Positions 1 to 27,865 of a DNA stretch of 27,865 bases are shown in pieces. The number at the start of each line of letters is the position of its first letter. The stretch's first letter is position 1. Source of the DNA: a virus. The notes under the pieces are model-generated. The model was not told the DNA's origin and searched no databases. It saw nothing but the letters and a program-made list of their open reading frames with translations. The stretch is from positions 1 to 27,865 of IMG/VR virus record IMGVR_UViG_3300045988_046995. One strand, written 5' to 3'. Made by a program: the position numbers and the translations under genes.

Positions 1-1
1 A

Positions 2-316
2 GTAGCTGAAACTTTTATATCTAATCCGAATAACTATCCTTGTATAAATCATAAGGATGAAAATAAATCAAATAATAATGTAAGTAATTTAGAATGGTGT
101 ACTTATAATTATAATAATAATTATGGAACTCATAATCTGCGAGCTGGATATAGTCATAAGAAACCAATACTGCAATTACTAAATGGAATAGTTATTAAAA
201 GATGGGATTCAGCAATAGATGCTGAGAGAGAACTAAATATACAATCTAGAAATATTGTAAAGGTTCTTAAAGGGCAGCGAAAAACAGCAGGAGGATATAT
301 GTGAACATATGAGTAA
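2..316 (+). CDS. HNH/NUMOD4-type homing endonuclease, 5'-truncated by the window edge (table 4)
   Basis: Reads VAETFISNPNNYPCINHKDENKSNNNVSNLEWC...GYM[TGA=W]TYE*. It is nearly identical at nucleotide level to 1063-1096 in the paralogue at 840-1406. The TGA at 302-304 falls in the typical C-terminal G-x-x-W-x-Y ending. Stop is TAA at 314-316. Confidence 0.8.
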
Positions 317-617
317 TAACGAAATTGTAGAAAAGTACTATCCATTTATTATGGAACTTAAGCAAAAATTTGGTGCAGATGATGACTGTGTTCAAATGAT
401 TTTTGTAGAAATACTAGAGTATTCAAATCCAAAATTAAATCAGCTTGATAGTAAAAATGAATTGAAATTTTGGATTACAAGATTATTTAAGAATTATTGG
501 TTTAGTAAAACAAGTAGATATTACTATACTTATAAGAAATATTATGAGATTGTTAAAGAACCACTTGAACAACAAAATGACGAATTGGAGGATTGATTAA
601 ATGAAACGGAAGATTAA
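309..617 (+). CDS. Sigma-70 region-2-like protein (ECF-like sigma2 domain only)
   Basis: DDDCVQMIFVEILEY...ELKFWITRLFKNYWFSKTSRYY resembles the region 2.1-2.4 pattern of group-4 sigma factors. No region 4 is present. The gene ends at TGA 594-596 under table 11 or at TAA 615-617 under table 4, so the 3' end is ambiguous. Confidence 0.5.
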
Positions 618-858
618 TATTGACGATTTACTTACTGAGTATGAAATAGACTATAGTATGTTTACAAATATGGATGATAGACTATTAAGTATATATCCAA
701 AATGACTTGAGCTTAATAAGGCAGATAAGACAGTAATCATATTATATGCTGAATATCACAGTTATAGAGAAGTGGGAAGAATATTAGGAATTAGTCATAC
801 TACCATAGCAAGGTGTATAAGTAATATTAGAAATAAAATATGTGGAAGGATATGTTAG
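601..858 (+). CDS. Sigma-70 region-4-like HTH protein (sigma4 domain only)
   Basis: DKTVIILYAEYHSYREVGRILGISHTTIARCISNIRNKI is a classic region 4.2 helix-turn-helix. It has its own ATG at 601, in a different frame from 309-617. There is one in-frame TGA at 703-705 (YPK[W]LEL). Stop is TAG at 856-858. Confidence 0.6.
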
Positions 859-1406
859 AAGAATGGAAACAATACAAGGATTTTCCTTTTGAAGTAAGTA
901 CTCTTGGTAGAGTTAGAACTATGCAAAGGGTAGTCAAATATAAGGATGGCAGAGAATATAATTACTCAAGTAAGATTATAAAACAATACATTACTAGAGA
1001 ATATAGTTATATTGTGATTTCACTGCATTCCAAAACATATAATTTTAGAGTGAATAGATTAGTAGCTGAAACGTTTATATCAAATCCAAATAATTTACCT
1101 CAAGTAAACCATATTGACGAAAATAAGTTAAACAATAGAGTTGAAAATCTGGAGTGGTGTACTGCTAAGTATAATTTAAATTATGGCACTCATACTAAGA
1201 AAGTTGTTGAAAAATTAACAAATGGCCCACTTGCTAAAAAAGTAGCTCAGTATGACTTAGATGGCAACCTAATTAAAGTATGAGATTCTATAAGAGAAAT
1301 AAAAAGATGCTTGGGATATGATAATGGAACCATTTCCAAGTTTTGTAGGAACAAAGTAAATTGGAAACATTGTTATGGGTTTATTTGGAAGTATTTTAAT
1401 AATTAA
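840..1406 (+). CDS. HNH/NUMOD4-type homing endonuclease (alternative start 852)
   Basis: Contains EEWKQYKDFPFEVSTLGRVRT (NUMOD4-like), [35 protein letters not shown] (HNH core) and a C-terminal IENR-like tail. The tail is read through TGA 1281-1283 (LIKV[W]DSIREI...GFIWKYFNN*). Stop is TAA. Confidence 0.85.
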
Positions 1407-1428
1407 TACTGTTATAGTTATATATACT

Positions 1429-1707
1429 ATGTCAGGAATTGATATTCCTATAAGGAAAAGATTATGAAATTACTTATATAGAGGATTACCATTTAATGAA
1501 GATTGAATGATTAAGCCTTGGGTGTGTAGTTGGTGTTTAGGCACCTGAATTGGTATAATTAGTTTATTTTGATTTGGGTTTAGTTTGCCGAACTTATTAT
1601 TAGTATTGCTAGTTGCATACTATAACGACTTAATTAAAGATATTATGATATTATTAAAAGATGCATCTACTAAGCTGATAGATGTTATATACAAACTTAT
1701 TAATTAA
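1429..1707 (+). CDS. Small membrane protein with a CxxC motif (table 4 only; alternative start 1507)
   Basis: Reads ...MIKPWVCSWCLGT[W]IGIISLF[W]FGFSLPNLLLVLLVAYY..., a hydrophobic helix. There are 4 in-frame TGAs (1465, 1504, 1546, 1570), so it is absent from the standard-code ORF track. Stop is TAA at 1705-1707. Confidence 0.4.
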
Positions 1708-1796
1708 AAATTATATTTTATGGAAACAGAAGTTATTTATCACTACAAGAATGGAAAGTTAATTTCTATATTTACTTATACTAAAAAGTGCTAATT

Positions 1797-2132
1797 ATGA
1801 AACAATTAACAGAAGAGCAGTTTAAATATTTAAGAGGATTTGAAGATAGATTTGTAACTGCAACTAAGTCTAATTATTGCAGAAATGTACAAAAGCAGGA
1901 TGTAATTAAGCTTAAAGAGATTTATGAATGTTTAATTGAACAAGAATATAGAATGAGCGTAGCTTGTGCTACTTGTATACTTAATCTTATAAAGAGGATT
2001 GCCCCAATCTATTTTGAATATCAAGAAAGACTAAAGGAAAATGAAAGTAAAGAATCAGGAACTGCCGAAGAAAACAGGGAGACCGAAAAAGGCAGAGGTA
2101 GAAAAGGAACAAATAGACGAAGTAAAGACTAA
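1797..2132 (+). CDS. Hypothetical protein upstream of TerS
   Basis: Open frame starting at ATG 1797 (the track start 1788 is GTG). The Cys-containing N-terminal part looks protein-like. The purine-rich C-terminus overlaps the TerS frame by 92 nt. Confidence 0.45.
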   Translation: MKQLTEEQFKYLRGFEDRFVTATKSNYCRNVQKQDVIKLKEIYECLIEQEYRMSVACATCILNLIKRIAPIYFEYQERLKENESKESGTAEENRETEKGRGRKGTNRRSKD

Positions 2133-2493
2133 ATATCTTTATGCTGCAAGGTTATTTAACAAAGGATGGTCAAGGAATAAAGTAAGTGAAGAACTTCAAA
2201 GTAAATATAATGTAAGCCAATCAACGGCTGCAAGATATATTGGAGAAGCTTATAAGATAATTGCTGAAAAGAATGATAACCTTATAAAAAATCTTAGACA
2301 TATACAATTATCAAGATTGGAATCATTACTGGATACTGCTATTAGTAAGGGAGATATTAGAGCTGCAAATGAGATTATTAAGACTATAAATAGTATGTTT
2401 GGATTAAATCAACCTGAGACTATTGTAGCTATTCAGAATAATGAAGTCCAGTTTAAATTTGGAGATCCAATTAACAATGACAAAAATATATAA
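2041..2493 (+). CDS. Terminase small subunit (putative)
   Basis: Has a basic GRPKK N-terminus, an HTH-like segment (WSRNKVSEELQSKYNVSQSTAARYIGEAY) and a helical oligomerisation-like tail. It lies immediately upstream of TerL and overlaps it. No TGA. Confidence 0.6.
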   Translation: MKVKNQELPKKTGRPKKAEVEKEQIDEVKTKYLYAARLFNKGWSRNKVSEELQSKYNVSQSTAARYIGEAYKIIAEKNDNLIKNLRHIQLSRLESLLDTAISKGDIRAANEIIKTINSMFGLNQPETIVAIQNNEVQFKFGDPINNDKNI

Positions 2494-3724
2494 AGGATAT
2501 AGCCCATTTATCTATCAATTAAAGGTACATACTGCTTTAGAGCACTCTTATAGGTCTGGAAAAATATTTACTGTAAAAGCAAAGAGACAATGTGGTAAAT
2601 CCTTTATGGCAGAAAATGAACTATTACGATTTTCAATTAACTATCCTGGAAGTATTAGCTGTATTGTTGAACCAACTCTTACTAACTCCAGAAAGATATT
2701 TAAAGAGTTAGTAAAGGCATTAGATGGCACAGATATTATTAAGAAAAAGAATGAATCTTTGCTTGAGATTGAATTTACTAATGGGAGTGAAATACTATTT
2801 AAATCTGCTGAGCAAAAAGATTCATTACGAGGATTTACAGTTAGTGGAATATTAGTAATTGACGAAGCTGCTTATATATCAGATGAAGTATACGAAATTT
2901 TAACACCTATCGCTGATGTATGGAATGCTCCAATACTTATAATTAGTACTCCAAGGTTTAGAGAAGGATTCTTTTATGAATGCTTTAAAAAGGGCTTTGA
3001 TGGTAATTTTAGTAAATATTATCAATCCTTTGATTGAGCATTAGAAGATACTTCTATGCTGTTAAGTGAGGATAAACTTGAAATGTATCGCCTTACAACC
3101 TCCAAAAATAAATTTAGAACTGAATATCTTGGAGAGTTTGCAGATGATGATGGTTGCCTATTTAATAATATAGCTAACTGTATAATTGATAAAAAACCTG
3201 AATATCATAATCTCTATATTGGAGTTGACTGGGCTACTGGTTCTGGTAAAGACTATACTTGTATTACAGCTTTAAATGAAAATGGGCAGATGGTCTTTAT
3301 AAAGTATTTTAACGACAAAACTCCAACAGAACAAGTTGATTTACTGACAAATATATTCACTGAGTATCAGGGATTTATAAAGATAGTTCAAGTTGAACAA
3401 AACTCAATAGGTTCAGTGTTTTATGATATTCTTGTAAAAAGGAATCCTAAATTACGGATAGTTAAGTTTTTAACTACTAATAAGTCTAAGGCAGCTATTG
3501 TAAATAAGCTACAAGCTGCATTAGAAAACGAAAAGATTGGTATTTTAAAGGATGATAAACTATTAAATGAATTAAGACTATATGAAGCCAGTTATAATCC
3601 AAAGACTGGAAATGTTAGTTATAATGCTCCATCTGGATTTAATGATGATACTTGTATATCTTTAATGTTAGCTTATGATGCTTTAAATACAAATAAAGGA
3701 ACTTATAATATTGCAATTAAATAA
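2477..3724 (+). CDS. terL: Terminase large subunit
   Basis: Walker A-like KAKRQCGKS, Walker B ILVIDEAAY, and nuclease-domain motifs GVDWATGSGKDY and FNDDTCISLMLAY. Track fragments 2441-3037 and 3056-3724 are in the same frame and are joined through a single TGA at 3035-3037 (YQSFD[W]ALED). Confidence 0.9.
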
Positions 3725-4508
3725 TGATAAAGAATTGGAATGAAATGGATTTATCTCATTATAAAAGACTGTTTGAGATAATACGAAAAGACTGGGAAAA
3801 TGAATTAGATATGAATTTAGCTATGGTATCTGTACTTAGTGATATACCTATGGAAGATATAACTAATATGGAAGTAAACAAGCTGCAAGAATTTATAAAT
3901 AATCTTAAATTTATAGAGACTCCATATAAGCCAAAAACCCCAGAAACTACTTATAATATTGGAAATAAAGAATATAAAGTCTTTTTTAATGTTAATAAGA
4001 TGACGGCCAGTCAATATATTGACTTTCAGAATTTTTATAAGCAGTATGATGATTTTATGCCTAATCTAGCAGCTTGTTTCTTACTACCTAATGGAAAGAA
4101 GTATGGAGAAGATTATGACCCTATTGATGAGGCAGAATTCTTAAATACTCATCTAACAATAGATATATTTTCAGACATAATGTTTTTTTTTGTAAACTTA
4201 TTGCAAGTATCAACGCTGAGTACCCTACACTCTTCGGAAAGGGAGATGAAGAAGAGACTAAGGAAAACCAAGGACAAACTGGAAAGGAGGAAACTTCTGA
4301 AGAGCTTAATACAGACGAGACGATTAATCCTTTTACTCAAAAATGAAGCTGAATTATCTGAATAGATAAGGTAAGTGAAGTTACCAGATTTAATTGGCAT
4401 CAGATATATGATATGCAGATTAAAGAGTTCCTGAATCTTATATGCTATGTTATAGATAAAGCTAATGAAGAAAATAGACAGATTGAAGAATGAAAAAGAA
4501 AACATTAA
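3724..4508 (+). CDS. Two-frame gene needing a -1 shift at the T9 run (4183-4191); function unknown, possibly a G/GT-type tail assembly chaperone
   Basis: Frame 0 (3724-4191) looks protein-like up to ...DIFSDIMFFF. After that it becomes a K/R/L-rich tail ending at TAG 4365. The -1 frame from 4191 reads CKLIASINAEYPTLFGKGDEEE...NPFTQK[W]S[W]II[W]IDKVSEVTRFNWHQIYDMQIKEFLNLICYVIDKANEENRQIEE[W]KRKH* and has no start codon of its own. Confidence 0.5.
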
Positions 4509-4509
4509 C

Positions 4510-4559
4510 TGTAACTTTTTTACTCATATTTGGTACTAAGATAATATAAAAAAGTTACA
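4510..4559. repeat. 50-nt imperfect palindrome, copy A (tgtaactttttta...taaaaaagttaca)
   Basis: The 13-bp terminal arms are perfectly complementary, and GTAC sits at the centre. It begins 1 nt after the stop at 4508. It belongs to the same family as 13911-13960 and 22857-22906. Confidence 0.75.
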
Positions 4560-4629: not shown

Positions 4630-5118
4630 ATGAATATTCAAGAATTAAAGTTCTCAAATTTAAGTGAGCTATTAAGGAAGTGAGGAGATCTTATAATTTC
4701 TCTTTATAGACAGGAATTAGTTAAAACCAGATCTGATGACACTGGAGCATTAGGTAATAGTTTAAACTATATAGTTGAGACTCAGGATGGAGACTATGAG
4801 GTTAATTTTAGCTTATTAGATTATTGAGAATATGTTGAAGAAGGCAGAGCTGCTGGTAAATTTCCTCCATTATCTGATATAAAGAGTTGGATTAAAACTA
4901 AGCCAGTAATTCCAAGACCTTATAATGGCAAGTTACCTACTGTAGATCAACTTGCATATTTAATTGGAAGAAAGATACATCTTCAAGGAACTCAAGGAAA
5001 ACATCCACTTGCTAATACTCTAGAATATATAGAGAACAACTATATGGAACTTCTTGATGATGCTATAACTAAAGACTTACAAGGACAAGTAGATTATTAT
5101 TTATTTAAAGACTTTTAA
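4630..5118 (+). CDS. HK97 gp10-like tail-completion/neck protein (putative)
   Basis: DTGALGNSLNYIVE...LLDY[W]EYVEEGRAAGKFPP resembles the TGxLxxSI...YAxYVExG pattern of gp10-family proteins. In-frame TGAs at 4681-4683 and 4825-4827 hide it from the ORF track. Stop is TAA at 5116-5118. Confidence 0.55.
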
Positions 5119-5120: not shown

Positions 5121-7301
5121 ATGACATTTATACCAAGTAAATTAGGAATACCAAGAAGTACAGGAACATATCCTGTTAAATGGGAAAATCCAGGATGAGG
5201 TCTTACAGGAGTATATGATTATTGGCTATGAGGAGATGACTATTCAGAAGAGGGTCCATTAGATGTTACTATTTCTAATGCAAGTACAAGTGGTTGTACT
5301 ATTAACTTTACAAATCCCTCAACTATTACAACAGACTCTTCTACAATATTTAGATTATACCCAAAAGGACTGACTACTGCTCAATTAGAAGATACTATGC
5401 CAGTTTATCTTCATAGTCAAGCTCCTGGATATTATCCTGCAAATAGCAGTATAACAGTACCCAATACTGGAGGTACTTATACTGTTGAATATATATTAAG
5501 TAGAGCAGATATTATTAAATGAACTTGTGATGTAGTAAATGCTACTGCTTTAGTGAGTGTTGAGGTATTAGAATGGGATTCTTGCTCTATTAAGTTTAAA
5601 TTCACAGTAAGAGCTAATACTCAATGGAATACAGATTTAACTGGAACTATCCAATTAGGAGCTTATTATGACACTAATAAATTTATTAGTTATAGTTATG
5701 GCTTTAAAATTGAAAAAAGTAATACTCCAGAAGATTTAAAGCTAGTAGTAACTCCTTCATCTGGAACTTATGGAGCATCTGCTTTTGTTACTGAAGAATT
5801 CCATTTAAGTACAACTAAAGCAGAAGAAACAATTACCTCATTTAATGTTACCTGCCCTCAAGCTAGTAATATTAAAAAGGATATTGTTGATAACTATTTT
5901 GTATTAACTGTTCCAGAGAATAAAACTACTAATAATTTAGAGTTTAGTGCAATGGTTACTGCAACAACTTCTGGAGGTTATACTCTTGAAGCTACAGTTC
6001 CAATTAAACAAGCTGCAACATCTTTAATGATTCCTAATACTAATTATGAAGTAAGTTGAACTGCATCTACATTAAATATAATTGGTACAGGCTCAAATAA
6101 CTTAGATGATGTTGTATTTAGTATTCCTGTAGGTTGGATTAGTGGTCAGAAGTTCTCTGTGAATCCTCAAGGTGTAGCAACTATTAGTTTGAACATTGCA
6201 GAAAATTCAGGTTTATCTTCTAGACAAGCAACTATTGGAGTATCTGTTATAAAGAATAGTTCAAGTATTATTAATTTATCTATTAATATTACACAATCTG
6301 TTAAATCTGATATATCTCCTATTTGGAAAGATTATGTTTGGAATGAGATAATCAGTTCAGATTTTATTGAATATCATCTAGATTATGCAGGAGATATGGT
6401 TTATGCTGGCAAGGCTTATAAATATCCTGAAACAGATAGAGTAGAGTTTCTATTAAATAATGTAGCTGAAAATTATCTATCTAATGGAATTATATTTAAT
6501 ACTTCTAAAACTATAATATCTCCAGAATATTTGAAACCATTTACTTTGATAACATCTAGTGGAAATGAAAAACCAATTACTTTCTTCAATGACTGGAGTT
6601 ATAAAGATAGAGATCTAACTAAAGGCACTATGTTAAGTGATCCTATTACTGGTTTAGTTGATCCAAGGCAGTATTTAGTATCAAGTTGAATTCTACCAAC
6701 TGGAACTGGAGTTATTAATAGATTCTTTTATATAGATGGAGTACAATCTGCTATGGATATTAGTTTAAATTCTGGAATTAATGGATATACATATACAGAA
6801 GATTTAAGTAATAAATTATGGCCTTGTGGAAGCTATTTAATAGTAGGATTTGTAGAAGGTGGAAATATTAGTGATAGACAGATTAGATATGATATAGATA
6901 CTACAGGTAAAGATTATGTATTATATTATACTAATTCAGCAGGTGGATGGGATTCATTACTTGTTGAGGGTAATGTTAAAAAGAATGATGAGATTAAATC
7001 TGAAACATATACTCGTAAGGTATTAAATACATCACAAGAGTTTGCAAGAAATAAGTATTTGAATACTATAACTTCAAGCTGGGTTCTTTATACTGGTTAT
7101 TTAAATGATATTCAAGCTTCTAAGATGTTTAATCTAATTGAGAGTACTAAAGTATATTTGCATAATCTTAAAGATAATACTATCACTCCAGTATTGATTA
7201 CTGATACAAATTGCGAATATAAAACTTATACTAATCAAGGTAAAAACAAGTTCTATTATACAATTAATGTAGAAGCTTCTCAAGATACTTATCGTAAATA
7301 A
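5121..7301 (+). CDS. 726-aa virion (tail) structural protein with Ig/BACON-like N-terminal repeats
   Basis: I translated 5121-5552 by hand and found it open. It is in frame with track ORFs 5553-6059, 6159-6689 and 6753-7301. In-frame TGAs lie at 5196, 5229, 5520, 6057 and 6687. Segments such as ISLNIAENSGLSSRQATIGVSV look BACON/Ig-like. Confidence 0.7.
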
Positions 7302-7303
7302 TT

Positions 7304-7783
7304 ATGGAAGTATATAAAGACATTAAAGGATATGAGGGACTTTACCAGATAAGTAATACTGGTAAAGTCTTCTCTATAAAAAACAATAAAGAACTGAAGA
7401 GTGGATATACTCCAGCTGGATATACAAAAGTTCAATTGTGAAAGAATAAGTCTGGCAAGTGATTCAATATTCATAGATTAGTTGCAGAAGCGTTTATTCC
7501 AAACGTAGAAAACTTACCACAAGTAAATCATATAAATGAGATAAAGGAGGATAATAGGGTTGATAATTTAGAATGATGTACAGCTCAATATAATGTTACT
7601 TATGGAAATAGATTAAATAATAATAAAAAACCTGTAATACAGGAAAGCTTAGATGGCACTTTTATAAAGAGATGAAATTCAATTGCTGATACTAAAAAAT
7701 ATGGGTTTGTTCCCCAAAATATAGGACAGTGTTGTATTGGTAATATTTCACAACATAAAGGATATATTTGAAAATATGCGTAA
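7304..7783 (+). CDS. HNH/NUMOD4-type homing endonuclease
   Basis: Contains [53 protein letters not shown][W]C and a C-terminal GYI[W]KYA*. All five Trp codons are TGA and none is TGG. It is free-standing between two tail genes. Confidence 0.85.
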
Positions 7784-10700: not shown

Positions 10701-11132
10701 TGATATAGTCCAAATGAAATTGTAAGCATTACACCTGAATCTGGGCAACCTGGAGAAACAGAATTAACAGTTACTTATAATGAGAATACTAAATATGACC
10801 AAAGAAGTTTCTACTTTAGTCTTTATAAACAAGGAAGTATAAATGGCCCTCAATGTATGTTTACTCAAACTCCAGACCCAAATAAAGCTATTCTTATTAC
10901 AGGAAAGCTTCAAACTTCTACTGGAGGTATTCCTTCTGGCGTTAATCAGATTCTAACTGAAAATGATAATTTCTTAAATGTCACTTATATGAGAGATGAT
11001 GGAAGTTATAGAATATATGCTCAAAATGGAGTTCAATTTTTATTTAGAGTATCTGACGGACCAACAGGAACAATTAAATATACAGAGAATTTAACACTAA
11101 CAGAAGATACTGTTAAAAATATTACAATCTAA
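7776..11132 (+). CDS. 1118-aa tail/baseplate protein (Tal-like or tail-associated; function uncertain)
   Basis: Track ORFs 7737, 8343, 9636, 10428 and 10857 share one frame. I translated 8643-9635 and 9969-10427 by hand and both are open apart from TGAs. The C-terminus has a BACON-like segment (ITPESGQPGETELTVTYNENTKYDQRSFYF). Stop TAA overlaps the next ATG (TAATG). Confidence 0.7.
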
Positions 11133-13910: not shown

Positions 13911-13960
13911 TGTAACTTTTTTATTCTTATTAACTACAAAATATGAGTAAAAAGGTTACA
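13911..13960. repeat. 50-nt imperfect palindrome, copy B
   Basis: tgtaacttttttattc / gagtaaaaaggttaca forms a 16-bp stem if two G-U pairs are allowed. It begins 10 nt after the tape-measure stop. Its first 13 nt are identical to copy A. Confidence 0.75.
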
Positions 13961-16188: not shown

Positions 16189-16713
16189 ATGGCTTGTTTA
16201 ATAACTATCGCTGGTATTACCCTGGATTGCGAATCTTCGCTTGGTGGTATCAAACAGGTATGGATTACTCAGTACGATAATGTTAAGAGTGTAGCTGTAG
16301 ATGATGAGACTAATCAAATCTCAGCTATTACTCTTGAATCAGATGCTAAATGGTATAATTACCAATTCCGCAAAGGTACTGGTTCTCTAACCTCAACATT
16401 GAACGTTGACGAAACTGCAGGAACCAACTATGTAAGTAATGAGCTTGCTCTTGTATTTACAAAGATGGAGACTAAGAAAAGAATCGAGATTGCTGCTCTT
16501 TCTATTGGACAACTTGTAGTTGTTGTAGAAGATTCTAATGGCAAATACTGGTTCTTAGGAAAAGATGACTATGTAAGCGCTTCCGCTGGTACGGGTGTTA
16601 CTGGTACTGCAAAAGGTGATCAGAACGCTTATACGCTGACTTTAGCTACTGACTCTGAATCATATCCTTATGAGTTGAGTGCTGAAGCTATTCAAAGTGT
16701 TGTAGGTGCTTAA
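16189..16713 (+). CDS. Major tail tube protein (putative; a head decoration protein is not excluded)
   Basis: 174 aa, with capsid-like codon bias and no TGA. Motifs include LGGIKQVWIT..., VVVVEDSNGKYWFLGKDDY and GDQNAYTLTLATDSE. A strong terminator follows directly. Confidence 0.45.
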   Translation: MACLITIAGITLDCESSLGGIKQVWITQYDNVKSVAVDDETNQISAITLESDAKWYNYQFRKGTGSLTSTLNVDETAGTNYVSNELALVFTKMETKKRIEIAALSIGQLVVVVEDSNGKYWFLGKDDYVSASAGTGVTGTAKGDQNAYTLTLATDSESYPYELSAEAIQSVVGA

Positions 16714-16722
16714 CAACAGAAG

Positions 16723-16760: not shown

Positions 16761-16803
16761 ATATACCACATAATGAATAATTTATATTTTATAGAAAAAT
16801 AAT

Positions 16804-19236: not shown

Positions 19237-19237
19237 T

Positions 19238-20359
19238 ATGAATATTAGAGATGATTTAAAAACATTTTATGTAGGTGACAGACAAGGTACTGCTATTTAT
19301 GTTGGCAGTACCAAAGTCTGGCCTATCAATCCTTGTAATCCACAAATAGTTACAGTTGCTAATCCAGTTCCTCAAGGTACTACAATAGTTGATCCTTGTA
19401 GTTATGTATTTAGCAGTTATGATGGAACTATAAATGATATACAAAGGGATTGAATGGGTAGAGGATCTGGCCTTACTTCTACAGTAATTAGTTTTACTGC
19501 TGATTTAAGTGAATTAGCCCTTAATATAGATGGTGTACCTCTTTGTAGTATTATAGGTTCTGCTCAAACATATGCAGATGTAAAGTTAAATAGTGGAGAT
19601 TTAAGTAGAAAAGGAGGGTTTTTTAAAACATCTCATTTTGATCTAAATAACCAGGAGATTACTAATCTTAATGAAGCATATGGAAGATGGTCTAGTGAAT
19701 CTCAATTTTGGGGTCAAACAATACATAGTGCTACTTTATCTAATGTTAAAATACCTACAACTACTAAAGAAGTAAGTGCAAATTATTTATTTATTGGAGT
19801 AAAAATAGATAATAATGATTTCTCTGTAATGAATAATTTTCAAAATCTTGTATTAGTAGATCCAAAATGGGCATTTGCAGATACAGCTGATGGAGCTACT
19901 AATATAGATAATATAACGATTAATATTCCATTTAAAGGAGATTGTAATCATATGTTTCATAGAGCATTATATCTAACAACTATTCCAAGTAATTTTACCT
20001 TTACTGGAATTACAGATATAAGCTATATGTTTAGTACTTGTAGTAGATTAATAGCTTCACCAGAAATAGATTGTCATCTTGTTACAGATTGTACTAGTTT
20101 TGCGGCATCTTGTCCAGAATTAGTAACTGTAGGAGCCTTAAATGGATTGGGAGAGAGTTTAACTGAAGGTGGCCTGCTATACTTTGCACAATCTCCAAAT
20201 TTATCTGAAGATTCATTACAAACTATAGCAGAATCTATTGGCACAGCAGTAAGTTCTAATACAAGTATTTCATTAAAATCTACTGCATACGATAAATTAA
20301 CAGATGAACAAAAATCATTAATAGCTTCAAAGAATTGAAGTATAAATCGAGTTGCATAA
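19238..20359 (+). CDS. DUF285/BspA-like leucine-rich-repeat receptor-binding protein (putative), paralogue 1
   Basis: Track ORFs 19238 and 19454 are in the same frame, joined by TGA 19451-19453. Repeats are of the type CNHMFHRALYLTTIP / ISYMFSTCSRLIASP / CTSFAASCPELVTV. The C-terminus is LTDEQKSLIASKN[W]SINRVA*. Confidence 0.65.
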
Positions 20360-20361
20360 TT

Positions 20362-20598
20362 ATGAAAATTGAAATTAAAGAAAAATATAAAGTAGTTAGT
20401 CCAGAAGAAGGTTATATACTTACTAACTATAAAGAAGGAATGGATATTAAATTATACAGTTCATTTACTGAATGTATCTGTCCTTTAAGTTGCGATTTAG
20501 AGCATCTATCAGAAGTCTCTTTAGATAAGGATGCTGAATATAAAGAATTAGCTATTAAAGCTTCTAAAGAGTATGAGGAATCAATAAAAGTTAGATAA
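20362..20598 (+). CDS. Hypothetical protein (78 aa)
   Basis: Open frame from ATG 20362, tightly packed between neighbouring genes. No recognisable motif. Confidence 0.45.
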   Translation: MKIEIKEKYKVVSPEEGYILTNYKEGMDIKLYSSFTECICPLSCDLEHLSEVSLDKDAEYKELAIKASKEYEESIKVR

Positions 20599-20600
20599 TT

Positions 20601-21320
20601 ATGATTATACTTAAGAATACTAAAAATACACAAACTTTCTATGTTAGTAAGAAATGTGGTATTGAATCTGGACAACTTCCTGTTGGTTCTTATACTAAGA
20701 TTGAAGCAGATGAAAGATTCCAACCTAAAGGTAATTACATTTCTGAAGAGAAAGCAGAAGAGTTAATTAATACTAAAGTAACAGAAAGTATTGAAGATCA
20801 AGTTCCTCCTTTAGTAGATCAATCTATTGATGCTAAGCTTGTTCCAATTAATACTGAGATTACTAATCTTAAAGGGGAAGTTGAGGAGTTAGAAACTTCT
20901 AAGATGGAAGTATTCCAAGCTAATCAACCTCTATCTTTACATAGAAATGGAGAAGGTTTGCAACTATCTGTAGATTTAAGTAATTATGCAACTAAAGCAG
21001 AAATTCCTGATACTAGTGATTTTGCTACTAAAGAAGAGCTTACAGCTGTTGAAAGTGAAGTTGGAAATAATTCTTCTAAGATTACAGCTATTGAAAGCAA
21101 ACAAGAAGAGGATGGACTAAAGATTGATGCATTAGATAAGGAAGTTGGGACATTAGATGCAAATAAAGCAGACAAATCGGAACTATCTAATTATGTAACA
21201 TTAGAAGTATATAATGCTAAGGTTTCAGAATTAGAAGCTGCTATTCAAGCTTTACAGGCACAAATCGGAACTATCTCAACTACTCTTGATACAATTAATG
21301 GTGAAATTCCAAATGAATAG
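20601..21320 (+). CDS. Coiled-coil fibre-like protein (second fibre module)
   Basis: Shares motifs with the fibre at 16804-19236: [25 protein letters not shown] versus QAPLAFNEDKSQLSVDLSGY, and [17 protein letters not shown] versus KTKQEEDGDKIDSLDKE. No TGA. Confidence 0.65.
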
Positions 21321-21834
21321 AGTATTAACAAATTATCCTAACTATAGTGTATCTTCTACAGGAGATGTATATAGTAACCCATTGACTTTTAAAGATTCTA
21401 TTGGAAGAACCAGAAAACAAATACATAAAAAGCTAAAACAGCATATAGATAAATATGGCTATAATTATGTAATTCTAGTATCTGGCTTAGATAAACCTAA
21501 AGCTATTAAAGTTCACAGACTAGTAGCAGAAGCATTTATTCCAAATCCTGACAATCTACCATATGTTAACCATATAAATGAAAATAAGACAGATAATAGG
21601 GTAGAAAATTTAGAATGATGTGATACAAAGTATAATAATACATATGGAACTAGAATAAATAGATGTATTGATAAAATTAGTAAACCTGTAGGGCTATTTA
21701 TTAATGATTTACTAGTTAAAACATATAAAAATGCAATTGAAACATCAATAGATGGGTATACTCATAGTAGAGTTATAGATTGTCTTAAAGGAAGAACAGA
21801 CACTTATAAAGGGGTAAAATTTAAATATATCTAA
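21313..21834 (+). CDS. HNH/NUMOD4-type homing endonuclease
   Basis: Contains [14 protein letters not shown] and [34 protein letters not shown][W]C, with the TGA at 21616-21618, then continues to ...YKGVKFKYI*. It overlaps the stop of the upstream gene. Confidence 0.85.
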
Positions 21835-21835: not shown

Positions 21836-22852
21836 ATGGCAAATACAATTTCTGATAAATTAACGTATCTTGAAGGTACTAAGAGTGCCATTAAAGATGC
21901 TATTGTAGCTAAAGGTGTTGCTGTATCAGATTCCGATACCTTTAGAAGCTATGCAGATAAGATAGGACAGATTTCTGGAGGTGGTGGAGGAAAGGTTAAT
22001 TTAAATGATTATGGATTAACATTTGCATATTCTAGTCCTACTGATAATCAAGTAAATCAGATTATCTTTGATTTACCTGATTTTACAAGTACGAGAAATT
22101 TTTTTTCGCATATGCAGTCTCCTAATGCATATATAAATCTGTTTTCTATGTGAAATACAGGTTTAAATTACGATTGTTCGGGTATGTTGAGTAATGCTAA
22201 AATAAATCAAATAGATTTCCCACAGGAAATTACTATACGCGATGGCAATAATATGTTTAGTAGTTTTAATGCTAATGCTTTAACATTAGATACAATTATA
22301 CTACAAACTAATACTGCTTGATATGATTTAAGTCAAATGTTTAATTCTTCTAATGTTGTATGCAATCATATAATTATTAGAGATGAAGAAAATGATACTC
22401 CGTATGTTGTGTTTAATGCCACTTTTGCCAATTTAACATCTACTATTACTACTCTCCCAGATATTAAGTTTGAATTAGTAGGATCATCTATTAATCTTGA
22501 ATGTGGAGGTACTTATAGTTATTTACCTGATACAATTACAACTTTGCCAGAATGAGATTTAACAGGTGTAAATGAAGGTCAGTCCTTTAATAATTGGCCT
22601 TTTTATAGTTGGGAATCTCCAAATACATCAATAACTGATATGGAAGGTATTATAAATTTAAGAGTGGAATTAAATTTATCTTTACTCCAGTCGTTAAATA
22701 GTGCAGCTATTGATAACATTTTAAATAAAGCTGCTGATTTAACTGGAGAAGTATCTCAAACTATTACATTTGCAGCAGATGTTTATAATGCACTTACTGA
22801 AGAACAGAAATCATTAGCTACATCTAAAAACTGAACTTTAGCATCAGCATAA
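21836..22852 (+). CDS. DUF285/BspA-like LRR receptor-binding protein (putative), paralogue 2
   Basis: Track ORFs 21836, 22337 and 22640 are in the same frame. In-frame TGAs lie at 22151, 22319, 22553 and 22832. The N-terminus is DKLTYLEGTKSAIKDAIVAKGV and the C-terminus is LTEEQKSLATSKN[W]TLASA*, parallel to the gene at 19238-20359. Confidence 0.65.
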
Positions 22853-22856
22853 ATTT

Positions 22857-22906
22857 TGTCAGTTTTTATTTTTTCTTAGTACTTTGAGTGAGTAAAAAAC
22901 TTGACA
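22857..22906. repeat. 50-nt imperfect palindrome, copy C
   Basis: tgtcagttttta...taaaaaacttgaca, with AGTACT at the centre. It is 50 nt long like copies A and B and begins 4 nt after the stop at 22852. Confidence 0.65.
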
Positions 22907-23008: not shown

Positions 23009-23401
23009 ATGAATTATACTTTATTAATGCAAAATACAATTACTAAAGAAGTTTATGTATATAACTTAGAAAATCAGAATTATGCTGAAAATATCTACTA
23101 TAAGTTTGATATTACATTATCTGATGATATGCCTGATGGTGAATATCAGTATATTCTGTTTAGTAATCCAAATAAACTTGAAGTAATTGTAGATGTAAAT
23201 AATCCTATGCAGTCAGAGCTATATGGTAATCCAGTTATTCTGGTAACTTATGAAAATACTCTTACTACAGGAACACAGATATTAGTTGCTGGTAAACCTA
23301 TACCTGTATTGAGTTCAGGACTAATAAGAGTTGGAGATTATCAGAATAATAAATACCAATACGATAAACAAAACAAATATATGGCTTATGAGCGAAAATA
23401 A
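23009..23401 (+). CDS. Hypothetical protein (130 aa)
   Basis: Uninterrupted ORF and first gene after the spacer. No motif recognised. Confidence 0.5.
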   Translation: MNYTLLMQNTITKEVYVYNLENQNYAENIYYKFDITLSDDMPDGEYQYILFSNPNKLEVIVDVNNPMQSELYGNPVILVTYENTLTTGTQILVAGKPIPVLSSGLIRVGDYQNNKYQYDKQNKYMAYERK

Positions 23402-24479
23402 AACAAAAGTACAATTAAGTGCAATTGATCCTGTTGTAGTGTCAAATTTAGTACTTCCTGTAGAATCGAGAAAAAGGGGTTCTGATTGGATTTCTTGGGG
23501 TGAAGATAATCGCTATCCATTATATCTATGGGATTTATACTTAAATGTAGCTACTCTTCAATCTATCATTAATGGGACTGCTGACTTTATTGTTGGTAAT
23601 GATGTTATATGTAATGCACCAGGATTTGAAGTAACTGTAAATAAGAAAGGTGAAACTATTATGGATATTATGCGTAAAGTATCTAAAGATAAGATGATTT
23701 TTGGAGGATATGCTTTACAAATAATTAGAGATATGTTAGGTAGAGTTTCAGAGATCTATCATCTTGACTTTATGAAGATTCGTTCTGATGAAAAGAATGA
23801 AGTATTCTATTATGCCGATGATTGGTCTGCTTGGTCTATTAAAGCTATCAAATATCCAAAATTTAATTATTCAGATGATAATCCTACAAGTGTTGTTTAT
23901 AATAAGGGCTATATAACAAGAAAAGTATATCCAGTCCCTGTTTATGGTGCAGCTATCCTATCTTGCGAAACTGAGAAGAATATTAATGAGTTCCATCTAA
24001 ATTCTCTTCATAATGGATTTATGGGCAATCTTATCATTAACTTTAATAATGGACAGCCTACAGACGAAGTTAAAGAAGAGATTGAGATGAATATCAATGA
24101 GAAATTCTCAGGATTTCAAAATGCTGGTAGAGTTCTTATTTCATATAATGATGATGAAACAAATAAGACTACTATTGAGCGTTTAGACTCTGATGATTTT
24201 GATGAGAAATATAGTGCTTTATCTGATAGGACAAGAGAACAGATATTCTGCGCATTTAGAGCTAATAGTGTACTTTTTGGCCTTAACTACTCAAGTGGAT
24301 TCAACGAACAAGAATTTAATGAAGCTTTTAAACTTTATAATCGTACAGTAGTTAGACCAATTCAGGTCGAAATAGTAGATACATTTGATAAGATATTTGG
24401 AATGAAAGGTTCAATAACTATAACTCCTTTTAGCTTAACTCCAAATGGACAAGAAGATAGCAAACAAAATGTTGAATAG
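23388..24479 (+). CDS. Portal protein (putative, small PBSX/P2-size class)
   Basis: The N-terminal region GSDWISWGEDNRYPLYLWDLYLNVATLQSIINGTADFIVG resembles the portal pattern (W..fG.dN.yP..l..l...s..h..ii..k). Likely start is ATG 23388. The 5 Trp codons are all TGG and there is no TGA. Confidence 0.65.
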   Translation: MSENKTKVQLSAIDPVVVSNLVLPVESRKRGSDWISWGEDNRYPLYLWDLYLNVATLQSIINGTADFIVGNDVICNAPGFEVTVNKKGETIMDIMRKVSKDKMIFGGYALQIIRDMLGRVSEIYHLDFMKIRSDEKNEVFYYADDWSAWSIKAIKYPKFNYSDDNPTSVVYNKGYITRKVYPVPVYGAAILSCETEKNINEFHLNSLHNGFMGNLIINFNNGQPTDEVKEEIEMNINEKFSGFQNAGRVLISYNDDETNKTTIERLDSDDFDEKYSALSDRTREQIFCAFRANSVLFGLNYSSGFNEQEFNEAFKLYNRTVVRPIQVEIVDTFDKIFGMKGSITITPFSLTPNGQEDSKQNVE

Positions 24480-25137
24480 CCATATTATATACTGTCATAA
24501 AAATCTATTAAACAATAAGCTATATTTTGGCATAACCTCTTTAAAACCAATAGAACGGTGAGGTTCTAAAGGGCAAGGTTATAAAAACAATAAACATTTT
24601 AATAGAGCAATTAAGTATTATGGGTGAGACAGTTTTGAACACATTATAGTTAAAGAAGGATTACCAGAAGCTTGTGCTAAAACATTAGAGAGAATATTAA
24701 TCTATAAGTATAACACTACCAATCCAAATAATGGCTATAATTTAACTGAAGGTGGAGAAGGAGTGCTTGGTTGGCATCACTCAGAGATTACCAAAGAAAA
24801 AATGAGCTTAAACGCAAAAGGAGTAAATAATAATTTTTATGGTAAATACCATACCAAAGACTCTAAACAGAAAATGCGTTTAGCTAGATTAGGTAAATCC
24901 CCTGCCAATAAAGGTACTTCTTTATCTGAAGAAGCTAAATTAGCTATATCTGAACAACGATGCAAAGAAGTTGTTCAATACGATTTAGATGGCAATATTA
25001 TAAACACATATAAATCAGCTAAAGAAGCTGGAGAGATTAATAACTTTTATAGTTCCAATATAACAAGAGCTTGTAGAACTGGTAAATCATATAAAAATTT
25101 TAATTGACAATATAAATATGGAACAAATGGATTTTAG
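24469..25137 (+). CDS. GIY-YIG homing endonuclease with NUMOD3 repeats and an IENR-like tail
   Basis: Contains IIYCHKN..NKLYFGIT (GIY...YIG), ER[W]GSKG, AIKYYG[W]DSFEH, NGYNLTEGG, the repeats HHSEITKEKMS / YHTKDSKQKMR / SLSEEAKLAIS, and the tail YKSAKEAGE...KNFN[W]QYKYGTNGF*. In-frame TGAs lie at 24559, 24625 and 25105. Confidence 0.85.
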
Positions 25138-25804
25138 AAATGTACTTCTAATTAGTGAAGATTATATCAAATCTGAATCTAACTTAGATAATAATGTTTC
25201 TGGCAAGTATCTTCAATCAGCAATTAAGTTGGCTCAAGATGTAGAGCTTCAGTCAACTATTGGTACTAAGCTATTGGAAGCATTACAAAAGAAATGTATT
25301 AATTGGATTGATCCTCATACTCCAGTTCATCCAATAGAACCTCCTGAGCCACTTCCAAGTGATTCTATTGATGATTCTGATAACTACAGATATAAAGAGC
25401 TATTAGACTATTATGTTCAGCCTTATTTACTTTATCAAGTACTTAGCGAGATAGTAATTCCTATATCTTATAAGCTTGGTAATTTTGGAGTTATGAGAAC
25501 TGATGATGAGAAAGATATTGCTGCTGAAGCAAGTCAAGTAAATCAAATTAAGAAGTATTATAGAGATAAGGCGGATTTCTTTAAGACTCGTTTACAGGAC
25601 TTTATAATTACATATTATAACGAATTCCCTGAGCTTTATACATATAAGCCATTAAAGGATATGTTTCCCAATCTTTACTCTAGCTCATCTTGCAATATTT
25701 GGCTTGGTGGAGCAAGAGGTAAAGGATGGAGCGTTAAACCTGGAGAGGGACCTCTTCAAAGAGCTTATGATTTTCCTTCAAGTAACAATAAAAAGAGTAA
25801 GTAA
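25118..25804 (+). CDS. Virion head-completion/connector-like protein (function uncertain; alternative start 25127)
   Basis: Uninterrupted ORF downstream of the portal. The N-terminus ISEDYIKSESNLDNNVSGKYLQSAIKLAQDVELQSTIGTKLLEAL recalls head-tail connector families. No TGA. Confidence 0.4.
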   Translation: MEQMDFRNVLLISEDYIKSESNLDNNVSGKYLQSAIKLAQDVELQSTIGTKLLEALQKKCINWIDPHTPVHPIEPPEPLPSDSIDDSDNYRYKELLDYYVQPYLLYQVLSEIVIPISYKLGNFGVMRTDDEKDIAAEASQVNQIKKYYRDKADFFKTRLQDFIITYYNEFPELYTYKPLKDMFPNLYSSSSCNIWLGGARGKGWSVKPGEGPLQRAYDFPSSNNKKSK

Positions 25805-25806
25805 TT

Positions 25807-26232
25807 ATGACCTACTATGAGATAATTAGCAATTTAAAAGCTTGTGCATTAGAAGAGCCAAACATCAATTTTGTAGGAAGTAAAGACATTTATGAGTTAA
25901 ATAGCTTACCAACTATTGAGTATAATGTGTTCTATATAACACCTAATACTTTTAGTGTAGATGAAGATACTATTACTTACTCTTTAAACCTATACTTCGT
26001 ATCAAGATGGGATGAGACTGATAACAACCAATTGGAGGAACAGTCAGCAGGTATGCTTGCACTGCAAAATATAATTAATCGTTTTAATAACCTATATCCA
26101 GAAGTTGAAATAGCTTATCCTTTAATTTATACTCCATTCTATCAAAAGTTCAAAGATATTACCTGCGGAGTGTTTGTTAGAGCTGATTTCCAAGTTGACA
26201 ACACACTGGGTACTTGCACTGATGATATGTAA
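25807..26232 (+). CDS. Hypothetical virion-module protein (141 aa)
   Basis: Uninterrupted ORF. Its stop overlaps the next start (TAATG at 26230-26234). Confidence 0.5.
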   Translation: MTYYEIISNLKACALEEPNINFVGSKDIYELNSLPTIEYNVFYITPNTFSVDEDTITYSLNLYFVSRWDETDNNQLEEQSAGMLALQNIINRFNNLYPEVEIAYPLIYTPFYQKFKDITCGVFVRADFQVDNTLGTCTDDM

Positions 26233-26888
26233 TGGAAAATAAATTAAATTGGTTTGGTAAAGTATTAGAATGGGTTGATAAATATGGATTACTAAAGATA
26301 TTTAAAGCAGGGATTGGATTAATATTTATATCCTATGTAATGGTTATTACACTTAATCCCTCTATTGTTTATAATAAGGTTGTAACCTATATTGAACAAA
26401 CTCACAATTCTAAAACTATTGCAAGAAATGAAGCAACTTTAAAGATTAAATATAAGCTTAAAGAATTGCTTCAAAGCACAAATGCTGATAGAGCTTGGGT
26501 TATTGAATATCATAATGGAACTACTGGATTAGGGGGACTTCCATTTACTTATGGAGTAATGAATGCAGAGGAAGTAAAACCAGGAATAAGATCTGTAAGT
26601 AGCCATTATAAAGATTTCCTGTTATCTGACTATACTTCAATTATAGAGTTTTCTAAGAATGATGGATGGTTTGGTAATATAGATAGTTTAGAAGCAGATG
26701 ATCCAAGATTATATTATGCATTTAAATCCAACAGAGTGAATGAAATAGCAGTATTTTATTTAAAGACTGAGGATAAAGATATTGGCATTTTAGGTTTATC
26801 ATTCTGTGATACACCTATGCCTTATGATACTTGAGTACATCTAAGAAGAGCTGGAATACAGATAAGTATAATTTTAAATAAAATATAA
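26232..26888 (+). CDS. N-terminally membrane-anchored protein with a globular (GAF-like?) C-terminal domain, adjacent to the lysis genes
   Basis: Has one TM helix (AGIGLIFISYVMVITL) and then about 150 aa of soluble domain. It is read through TGA 26832-26834 (PYDT[W]VHLRRAG...) to TAA 26886-26888. Confidence 0.55.
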
Positions 26889-26889
26889 T

Positions 26890-27048
26890 ATGAAATATTG
26901 GTTAAAATATGTAATAGTAGTTGTACTATTAATGATTGCATTTTTGTTAATTAAAGTAATTCCTTTTTGGATTACTATTAGTTTAACGTTATTTGGAGCA
27001 GTGTGCTATTTTATTTATCTTTATAAACTGCATAATTCATACAAATAA
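26890..27048 (+). CDS. Holin (putative, 52 aa, two TM segments)
   Basis: MKYWLKYVIVVVLLMIAFLLIKVIPFWITISLTLFGAVCYFIYLYKLHNSYK* has two hydrophobic helices and a charged C-terminus. Its stop overlaps the endolysin ATG (TAATG at 27046-27050). It is below the 60-aa cutoff of the track. Confidence 0.55.
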   Translation: MKYWLKYVIVVVLLMIAFLLIKVIPFWITISLTLFGAVCYFIYLYKLHNSYK

Positions 27049-27500
27049 TGAAGTATTTCACACTCGAAGAATTAACAAGATCTGATACTGCTTCAATTAA
27101 GCATATAGATAACACTCCAGATGAGAGTATAACAGAGCACCTGATAGAGTTGGTCAAGAAGCTTTTAGACCCAATAAGAGAGAGATGGGCAAAGTATTGT
27201 GATGACAATCAGCTTGGCAATGCAGGCATCAGGATTTCCTCTGGTTTTAGGAATAAGGAGCTTAATAAAGCAGTGGGAGGATCTTCAACTTCTGCTCATT
27301 TAACAGGGTATGCAGCAGATATATCTCCAATTAATGGTAATATGAAAGTATTCCAAAGTTGGATTGCTGAAGCTATTGAAGAATTTGATTTCGACCAGTT
27401 GATATATGAAAGGCCTAGGAATGGTATAGCTAGTTGAATACACTTGGGATTAAAGAATAAAGACGGGATGCAAAGACGACAGAAATTTACTATTATATAA
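27048..27500 (+). CDS. Endolysin, peptidase M15 (LAS-type Zn D,D- or L,D-peptidase)
   Basis: SSGFRNKELNKAVGGSSTSAHLTGYAADI matches the SxxR...GG...SxHxxGxAxD motif. The C-terminal GIAS[W]IHLG is read through TGA 27435-27437. Stop is TAA at 27498-27500. Confidence 0.85.
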
Positions 27501-27502
27501 TT

Positions 27503-27841
27503 ATGGATTCCAAATCAAGTAAATTGCTTCATAAGACTAAGAGGAAAGTAAGAAGTGAAGAATATTTAAAGTACCAGAGATATATCCGCTCAAAAGAATT
27601 TAAGGCGATTAGAGAGCAAGTTTTGTTGAGGGATAACTACCACTGCCAAACTTGTAATTGGTGCGTTGAGGAAGGCGGAAACAGGTCATTATCGGTACAT
27701 CATAAGAGGTATGACAATTTATATGAGGAGCAAAACCATTTGGAAGATTTGATAACATTATGTTCAGTATGTCATAAAGCTATACATTCGGCAGTAAGTA
27801 ATTATCAAAGGTTTAATAAAAAAGAAAAGGAGGGCAAATAA
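27503..27841 (+). CDS. Small HNH endonuclease (terminase-associated type)
   Basis: CQTCNWC...LSVHHKRY...LITLCSVCHKAIH is a CxxC...HH...CxxCH zinc-finger HNH motif. No TGA. Confidence 0.8.
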   Translation: MDSKSSKLLHKTKRKVRSEEYLKYQRYIRSKEFKAIREQVLLRDNYHCQTCNWCVEEGGNRSLSVHHKRYDNLYEEQNHLEDLITLCSVCHKAIHSAVSNYQRFNKKEKEGK

Positions 27842-27856
27842 CCCTCCTTTTTGTTT
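27825..27856 (+). terminator. Rho-independent terminator
   Basis: aaaaggaggg / ccctcctttt forms a perfect 10-bp stem with a 7-nt loop that contains the TAA stop. A T-run follows. Confidence 0.75.
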
Positions 27857-27865
27857 ATTCCATTA

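Follow-up and report, generated by a model that had tools for sequence, protein, structure and literature searches.

The stretch of viral DNA examined here (IMG/VR record IMGVR_UViG_3300045988_046995; 27,865 bp, the whole of which we call the window) belongs to a gut bacteriophage in whose genes TGA almost certainly encodes tryptophan, alongside TGG. The window has a G+C content (GC) of 30.8%, carries all of its long open reading frames (ORFs) on the plus strand and, to judge from its sequence and that of its relatives, makes up about 90% of a circular tailed-phage genome of ~30.9 kb. Phages of the gut that use translation table 4 form an established class, predicted bioinformatically (Borges et al., 10.1101/2021.08.26.457843; Cook et al., PMC11210395), and the window is a further case of that class and not a new phenomenon; the initial annotation, which proposed TGA = Trp from the letters and remarked that recoded phages were already known, was right on this point. 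This overall picture is very probably correct; within it, a recoding that is specific to the phage, as in the phages of Borges et al., in a standard-code Bacteroidota host is the probable but less certain part.

The reading frames are the first line of evidence. The initial annotation had pointed to runs of same-frame fragments split by a single TGA, and the merged frames are borne out by ORF statistics. On the plus strand the standard code yields 39 stop-to-stop ORFs of at least 100 aa, with a total of 7680 aa and a maximum of 649, and read-through of TGA yields 32 such ORFs with a total of 9312 aa and a maximum of 1135. Coverage of the window by these ORFs rises from 0.83 to 0.97 when TGA is read through; read-through of TAG brings no comparable gain (still 0.83). 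The table-4 gene set (32 coding sequences [CDS], a 5′-cut HNH gene and a 52-aa holin-like ORF) reaches a coding density of 95.8% of the window. Every CDS ends in TAA (27) or TAG (5) and none in TGA, as first described, and the 8967 codons include 48 TGA and 70 TGG in frame, in keeping with TGA as an added tryptophan codon beside TGG. TAA/TAG are absent in frame (0, versus 350/714 and 293/199 in the two other frames). Since the off-frame density of TAA plus TAG is 7-10% per codon and the runs that stay open 3′ of the TGAs extend for up to 941 codons, chance is excluded. Pfam matches also continue across TGAs in the large terminase TerL (Terminase_6N), the XkdF-type protease (Peptidase_S78_2), HNH_3, NUMOD4 and GIY-YIG. 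The one part of the initial claim that has to be narrowed is its extent: the meaning of TGA holds, but in-frame TGA is confined to 19 of the 32 CDS, and its use is very uneven, so the whole window cannot be said to be written this way.

That TGA is a true stop, and that the fragments are pseudogene remains, products of occasional leaky read-through or an assembly artefact, is suggested by the standard-code ORF track and by nothing more. We reject this reading, to which we attach next to no probability, on the strength of the long open frames just described, of domains and homology that extend across the TGAs, and of TGA positions that are kept, or exchanged with TGG, in dozens of independent assemblies. 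Leaky read-through in particular is incompatible with one gene bearing 10 TGAs. The base following TGA does not differ from that following TGG or following all codons, so there is no bias toward a leaky-stop context and no sign of selection for one.

Which amino acid is inserted can be read from homologues. The four HNH paralogues singled out in the initial annotation indeed share the motif NLEWC, with its tryptophan codon TGG at 95-97 and 1155-1157 and TGA at 7574-7576 and 21616-21618; the other TGAs it cited were likewise recovered at 14469 in the XkdF protease, 27435 in the M15 lysin, 24625 in the GIY-YIG enzyme, and 302, 1281, 7673 and 7769 in the HNH tails. For the HNH gene at 7304-7783 we masked the TGAs as X, searched a collection of 5.8 billion proteins and aligned 118 homologues (~45-60% identity) with MAFFT. 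Of its five TGAs, three coincide with columns in which tryptophan stands in 105/118, 95/118 and 117/118 homologues (81-99%). No other W-majority column is shared between this gene and the homologues, and the whole alignment has a single W-majority column beyond those three. The remaining two lie in variable columns, one of them mainly tyrosine.

Comparison within the family leads to the same residue. X-masked window proteins were set against 15 loci related by their major capsid protein (MCP) and free of in-frame TGA; opposite the TGAs stood W in 33, Y in 16, A in 8 and G in 7 of 107 cells. Among individual sites, the XkdF site 14469 is W in 13/14 non-recoded relatives, the neck-protein site 4825 in 6/7, and the tail site 9627 reads W5/Y2/F1. 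The TerL TGA at 3035 falls within the Terminase_6N match, and a standard-code relative (L056) has W there. When codons at all 48 sites were tallied over ~160 related loci, with identical local contexts counted once, we found TGA 316 times, TGG 179, Tyr 76, Phe 19, Gly 15 and Cys 1, and TGG occupies the site in at least one relative at 38 of the 48. The replacements seen (TGA, TGG, Y, F) form a spectrum that mirrors the one at TGG sites of the window itself. Tryptophan makes up 1.32% of codons if TGA is counted and 0.78% if it is not. The M15 site, which the initial annotation gave as the W of SWIHLG, is TGA in 16 contexts within the lineage and TGG in two; PDB alignments stop short of the TGA sites in both the lysin and the GIY-YIG enzyme, and for this site the support of a solved structure from outside the lineage is therefore lacking. 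Throughout these tabulations of the residues opposite TGA, tryptophan is modal, as had been anticipated.

The same comparisons dispose of glycine (the meaning of TGA under code 25, which phages of Gracilibacteria and Absconditabacteria use) and of cysteine or selenocysteine. ORF statistics by themselves cannot tell code 4 from code 25, and glycine does occupy a few aligned cells. These are, however, 13 of 1105, 7 of 107 and 15 of ~860, with cysteine in one, and W or TGG is modal throughout; glycine is found in 0 of 118 homologues at the three conserved HNH columns, which are 81-99% W. Selenocysteine would have to be inserted at 48 sites that show no requirement resembling a selenocysteine insertion sequence. 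We reject these readings on the alignments and consider them vanishingly improbable.

The phage itself can be placed through its relatives. One of them, IMGVR_UViG_3300045988_097310 (c097310), is 30,921 bp long, and its ends overlap by 55 bp, which points to a complete circular genome. The window runs collinear with another, c093071, of which ~3.6 kb is absent between the window's end and its start; in relatives, this missing part holds a leftward gene of 572 aa and the beginning of a rightward operon. IMG/VR contains 55 MCP-related loci, mostly contigs of ~30 kb, and the exact MCP is present in many public assemblies, only on contigs <50 kb. The lineage is common in public metagenome assemblies. 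A megablast of 25 kb against GenBank phages gave zero matches, TerL is only 25-28% identical to the TerL of Thermus and Halorubrum phages, and no integrase was seen in this very small genome. Public gene calls on contigs with an identical MCP already include full-length products of 726, 1118 and 922 aa, which implies that automatic pipelines already read through TGA here. A near-complete copy of the phage (TerL 97% identical) also lies at 110-148 kb of a far longer contig, IMGVR_UViG_3300045988_175865 (148,631 bp; L136/L093/L017), preceded by ~9 kb of extra TGA-rich tail-fibre and collagen-like genes. A walk upstream in this contig for host DNA met only further TGA-rich tail-fibre genes, and a portal query did not retrieve it; it may represent a larger phage, or else a concatemer or an assembly chimera.

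The relatives of this phage fall into four coding states. Distant MCP relatives (GC 34-56%), and also L045, use TGA as a stop. The nearest non-recoded relatives, L038, L041 and L044 (IMG/VR, GC 28-34%), have zero TGA in their long ORFs, either as stop or as sense, and look like an intermediate with an unassigned codon between relatives in which TGA is a stop and those in which it is tryptophan. In the close clade (GC 30-35%) TGA is tryptophan. Finally, in L057 (CAVCAD010000156.1) coverage improves only with read-through of TAG (from 0.84 to 0.98), and its homologous segments hold 17 in-frame TAGs; its TerL, neck, tail, protease, scaffold, MCP, portal and DUF6712 genes follow in unchanged order. 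This suggests that both reassignments have occurred in one phage family; alignment at ~30% identity assigned no residue to the TAGs of L057. Small clades that mix codes 11, 15 and 4 have been reported (Borges et al., 10.1101/2021.08.26.457843), and the series of states matches the route proposed there, in which low GC leads to loss of a stop codon and then to its reassignment.

How TGA is decoded is the harder question. ARAGORN at default settings found no tRNA in the window, in ~77 related loci or in the complete relative. Relaxed to 85% thresholds, with and without introns, it returned noise inside coding regions and no UCA anticodon, and Rfam gave no tRNA in the window or the complete relative, either at the gathering threshold or at E<=10. 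No tRNA-Trp(UCA) gene was thus found in the window or in complete relatives, nor was there any release-factor or aminoacyl-tRNA-synthetase domain, TrpRS and RF1 included, in the 32 window CDS and the four early-region proteins scanned. A Sup-TCA tRNA is present in 35% of predicted code-4 phages according to one study (Borges et al., 10.1101/2021.08.26.457843) and in 15% according to another (Cook et al., PMC11210395). [quoted passage not shown]

We hypothesize that TGA would be translated via something other than a canonical phage tRNA, be it a host-side decoder or an unrecognised phage factor. In its strongest form, which we put forward tentatively and rate as doubtful, the proposal is that a minimal phage of ~31 kb, with ~40 genes, causes TGA in nearly all of those genes to be read as tryptophan by a Bacteroidota cell of the standard code, and does so without encoding a tRNA, a release factor or a synthetase. 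If so, the mechanism would be one so far undescribed for phages. A small phage protein might disable release factor 2 (RF2), whereupon the host tRNA-Trp would read UGA; alternatively, the host tRNA-Trp might be edited or modified. That the most abundant proteins avoid TGA would then be a signature of slow decoding. The 572-aa leftward gene just outside the window, an early helicase, has 677 homologues but no Pfam, PHROG or PDB sequence match. In its AlphaFold model (pLDDT 82) the first ~320 residues match generic SF2 helicases only, which gives no hint of a role in translation.

The uneven use of TGA bears on this question. In the genes for tail, fibre, lysis, regulators and homing endonucleases TGA accounts for 40-100% of tryptophan codons (31-96% in a count of tail, fibre and lysin genes), and it is almost absent from the scaffold, capsid and portal genes and from the conserved leftward early helicase gene (family counts in Table 1). 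Within the window, the head and portal group has 1 TGA and 18 TGG and the rest 47 and 52 (Fisher p = 6e-4, for a grouping made post hoc). Overall TGA supplies 41% of tryptophan codons, and the A-ending share is 64-97% in every other NNA/NNG pair. Poorer decoding of TGA than of TGG would explain both this under-use and the avoidance in highly expressed genes, and we infer that TGA is fully a sense codon, one that is costlier or less well decoded than TGG.

The host is probably a standard-code Bacteroidota bacterium, a view to which promoters, the missing Shine-Dalgarno signal, homologues and the binning of L057 all contribute. Shine-Dalgarno cores precede 3 of 32 genes, a number equal to the background. 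The composite promoter consensus of Bacteroidota, known from the Bacteroides promoter literature, is TTTG-N17-21-TAnnTTTG. It has 0 occurrences in the window, and the single motif TAnnTTTG is absent from the window's intergenic gaps. Two complete relatives carry 3 and 4 copies of the composite promoter, 6 of these 7 in the early divergent intergenic region, where they face both early transcription units, two toward the helicase gene and one toward the rightward operon; the promoter core TTTGGAAATT...TATCTTTG is conserved.

The early helicase has homologues, ~45% identical, in a low-GC island of a Hymenobacter chromosome. This island (L164; Hymenobacter sp. J193, JAJONE010000001.1, 3.67 Mb region) spans ~10 kb at ~33% GC in a chromosome of 65-69% GC, and in it the helicase homologue adjoins HamA (Hachiman-type), a helicase and an integrase, which suggests that the family also resides in integrated elements or defence islands. 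A second homologue, free of in-frame stops, belongs to a TAG-read-through prophage that adjoins a tyrosine integrase at ~5900-21740 of a 132-kb contig (L165; ENA ERZ28598220 scaffold_71). That contig uses the standard code at ~38-40% GC, and its GlnA falls in the same 90%-identity cluster as Lentimicrobium proteins; TerL, portal and capsid of the prophage are fragmented in public standard-code calls. L057 was binned with a Bacteroidaceae metagenome-assembled genome (MAG), and one scan of GTDB genomes returned two phage-sized MAG contigs and no prophages.

The alternative that survives best is that the phage simply mirrors a native code-4 host, either one of the Mycoplasmatales or an RF2-less, low-GC gut Eggerthellaceae, with no need for a code switch. 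No tRNA, release factor or TrpRS was found in the window or the complete relative, 19 of 32 CDS, regulator-like ones among them, contain TGA, and Mycoplasma or Spiroplasma are the hosts of most code-4 phages in culture (PMC11210395). Code-4 Eggerthellaceae from mammalian stool have a GC of 31-40%, which overlaps with the 31% of the phage, and a cell wall that is compatible with an M15 lysin (PMC13462651). Against this, the early promoters of the relatives are of Bacteroidota type and cluster in the early region, a Shine-Dalgarno signal was not found, the early-helicase family occurs in Bacteroidota genomes, and TGA is under-used relative to the A/G bias and nearly absent from highly expressed genes and the early gene. 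An M15 endolysin is at odds with the wall-less cells of Mycoplasmatales, and there is no similarity to GenBank phages. UGA to Trp has been reported in Bacillota, Pseudomonadota, Verrucomicrobiota and gut Eggerthellaceae, and not in Bacteroidota (PMC13462651). On balance we regard a native code-4 host as rather unlikely.

Several points nevertheless weigh against phage-specific recoding in a Bacteroidota host. No host could be linked to the phage directly, either by a CRISPR spacer match or by a prophage copy; binning of phage-sized contigs in MAGs is weak evidence; and the promoters come from relatives, the early region being outside the window. A native code-4 host would account most simply for the failure to find a suppressor tRNA or release factor. 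The per-family TGA counts are pseudo-replicated across related contigs, and the grouping in the Fisher test was picked after the data were seen. Lastly, TGA is present in rightward regulator-like genes (at 594 and 703) and in the second gene of the relatives' rightward early operon, so that a simple switch from an early standard to a late recoded phase is not a clean fit.

The systems closest to this phage are the code-4 gut phages already described (Ivanova 2014; Yutin 2021; Borges 2021/2022; Cook 2024). It shares with them low GC, in-frame TGA in structural and lysis genes, a replication-type early gene practically without TGA (the helicase, with 1 TGA versus 113 TGG), relatives with TGA-stop, TGA-free and TAG-read-through codes, and no detectable suppressor tRNA, as in 65-85% of predicted code-4 phages; a standard-code host, which is probable here, would be a further point in common. 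It differs in its very small genome, its tRNA-less complete relative and the lack of a visible integrase; in having TGA also in regulator-like genes and homing endonucleases; and in that capsid, scaffold and portal avoid TGA, so that late genes are not recoded as a class. The Garnet and Amethyst clades of Borges et al. measure ~34 kb (34 +/- 5-6 kb), with which the ~31 kb found here is compatible in a comparison by size alone.

Other systems are further away. Phages of Mycoplasma and Spiroplasma, whose code 4 is native, also read TGA as tryptophan and need no suppressor tRNA of their own, whereas this phage resembles no GenBank phage in sequence, encodes a peptidoglycan M15 endolysin, has early promoters of Bacteroidota type (in relatives) and no Shine-Dalgarno signal, and uses TGA as the minority tryptophan codon in spite of its 31% GC. 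The crAss-like and Lak phages that read TAG as glutamine (code 15) are alike in inferred host phylum, low GC and reassignment of a stop, and L057 and L165 read TAG; they differ in the codon and amino acid concerned, in their much larger genomes and in often having suppressor tRNAs. Code 15 has been validated by proteomics, and no such validation is given in the same work for TGA to Trp (PMC9523058). The code-25 phages of Gracilibacteria and Absconditabacteria resemble this one in that TGA is sense, but the residue aligned here is Trp and not Gly.

The genes and other features of the window are collected in Table 1.

Table 1. Features of the window under translation table 4. Family counts are in-frame TGA/TGG in distinct sequences of the recoded clade and are pseudo-replicated across related contigs.
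Feature	Position	Strand	In-frame TGA and remarks	Family TGA/TGG
HNH homing endonuclease, 3′ part, cut by window start	2..316	+	NLEW Trp is TGG at 95; TGA at 302	
102-aa protein, no assigned function	309..617	+	TGA at 594; site TGA in 4, TGG in 1 relative contexts	
Helix-turn-helix (HTH) protein, sigma-70 region 4-like	601..858	+	Pfam HTH_50 5e-8, Sigma70_r4_2 4e-4; TGA at 703	19/7
HNH_3/NUMOD4/NUMOD1 homing endonuclease	840..1406	+	NLEW Trp is TGG at 1155; TGA at 1281	
110-aa hydrophobic membrane-like protein	1375..1707	+	TGA at 1465, 1504, 1546, 1570	
114-aa protein, no assigned function	1788..2132	+	Zero TGA, zero Trp	
150-aa protein directly upstream of TerL, possibly small terminase subunit (from position)	2041..2493	+	No TGA	
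Large terminase (TerL)	2441..3724	+	Terminase_6N 5e-12 (residues 49-243), Terminase_6C 7e-7; TGA at 3035	
213-aa protein, no assigned function	3724..4365	+	No TGA	
31-aa ORF	4413..4508	+	TGA at 4491; W there in relative L038	
Inverted-repeat element, 50 bp, TGTAACTTTTTTACTC...AAAAAAGTTACA	4510..4559	.	Intergenic gap	
Neck / tail-completion-like protein	4630..5118	+	PHROG 5, 2e-5; TGA at 4681, 4825	
726-aa virion (tail) protein	5121..7301	+	TGA at 5196, 5229, 5520, 6057, 6687	
HNH_3/NUMOD4 homing endonuclease	7304..7783	+	TGA at 7439, 7460, 7574, 7673, 7769; no TGG	20/0
1118-aa tail protein	7776..11132	+	Weak BACON_2 match 6e-3; ten TGAs, at 8304, 8640, 8655, 9249, 9627, 9966, 10119, 10287, 10689, 10701	269/262
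922-aa tape-measure-like protein (from size, composition, position)	11132..13900	+	TGA at 12125, 12599, 13679	
Inverted-repeat element, second 50-bp copy	13911..13960	.	Intergenic	
XkdF-type prohead protease	14013..14606	+	Peptidase_S78_2 3e-9 (residues 48-168); TGA at 14469	8/66
Scaffold-like protein	14620..15222	+	No TGA	0/27
Major capsid protein (MCP)	15245..16150	+	Weak Phage_capsid match; no TGA	1/174
174-aa TGA-avoiding protein	16189..16713	+	Intrinsic terminator 3′ of gene at 16722-16751	1/102
Tail fibre, Phage_tail_C tip	16804..19236	+	TGA at 17284	24/1
373-aa tail-fibre-associated protein	19238..20359	+	TGA at 19451, 20336	
Two CDS, 20362-20598 and 20601-21320 (latter a coiled-coil fibre protein)	20362..21320	+	No Trp codons	
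HNH_3 homing endonuclease	21298..21834	+	NLEW Trp is TGA at 21616; W there in relative L038	
338-aa fibre-associated protein	21836..22852	+	TGA at 22151, 22319, 22553, 22832	
Inverted-repeat element, diverged third copy	22856..22905	.	Intergenic; followed by hairpin and T-run	
130-aa protein, no assigned function	23009..23401	+	No TGA	
Portal protein	23388..24479	+	Phage_portal 2e-11; no TGA; family TGA share 12%	24/173
GIY-YIG/NUMOD3 homing endonuclease	24445..25137	+	TGA at 24559, 24625, 25105	
DUF6712 protein (25118-25804) and 141-aa protein (25807-26232)	25118..26232	+	No TGA	18/129 (DUF6712)
218-aa protein, hydrophobic N-terminal segment	26232..26888	+	TGA at 26832	
52-aa holin-like ORF directly upstream of lysin (function from position and hydrophobicity)	26890..27048	+	Two hydrophobic segments; both Trp are TGG	
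M15 peptidoglycan peptidase (endolysin)	27048..27500	+	Peptidase_M15_3 3e-14; 1LBU match; TGA at 27435	37/53
HNH (PF01844) protein	27503..27841	+	No TGA	
Early helicase	outside window	leftward		1/113

Homing-endonuclease-type genes are abundant, with six in 28 kb (four HNH_3/NUMOD4, one GIY-YIG/NUMOD3 and one PF01844 HNH); the full-length homologue in c097310 of the one cut by the window start has 164 aa. These genes look mobile, because their insertions differ among contigs with an identical MCP, the HNH gene between the 726-aa and 1118-aa genes being present in some and absent in others. Their choice of tryptophan codon is unequal, with 5 TGA and 0 TGG in the gene at 7304-7783 and 1 TGA and 5 TGG in that at 840-1406, and may reflect different times spent in recoded genomes.

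Further observations concern regulation and the fibre region. The short, overlapping CDS at 309-617 and 601-858 both contain TGA and together might form a split phage sigma-like factor; the former resembles sigma region 2 by eye, with no tool match to back that. The hairpin at 16722-16751 is the strongest terminator-like structure in the window (12-bp stem, 6 of its pairs GC, plus a T-run), and its place directly after the TGA-free capsid gene and the 16189-16713 gene fits a highly expressed head-gene transcription unit. The two fibre-associated proteins at 19238-20359 and 21836-22852 have a common C-terminal tail, ...EEQKSL(I/A)(A/T)SKN[W]..., whose tryptophan is TGA in both (20336 and 22832), 6-7 codons before the stop, and TGG in several relatives. 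The inverted-repeat element is laid out as TGTAACTTTTTTAYTC, ~18 nt and then GAGTAAAAARGTTACA. In c093071 it occurs in four intergenic places, including one that separates the early helicase gene from its promoters. Its possible roles are those of an operator, of a phage-specific promoter or of a site for RNA processing.

Three features of this phage go beyond the textbook picture: a very small complete genome without any decoder found, avoidance of TGA by the most abundant late proteins where late genes as a class were expected to be recoded, and TGA in regulator-like genes and homing endonucleases. In practical terms, the standard code splits TerL, the tail proteins, the lysin and the homing endonucleases of an abundant gut phage, and table 4 restores a compact map of 32 genes. 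The means by which TGA is decoded in most code-4 gut phages is an acknowledged open question, with suppressor tRNAs in just 15-35% of them. The lineage described here has a very small, complete and widespread genome, a short early region bearing Bacteroidota-type promoters, and relatives that span four coding states. It could therefore be a tractable system in which to look for the missing decoder, and in which to ask whether recoded codons tune the level of expression and not only its timing.

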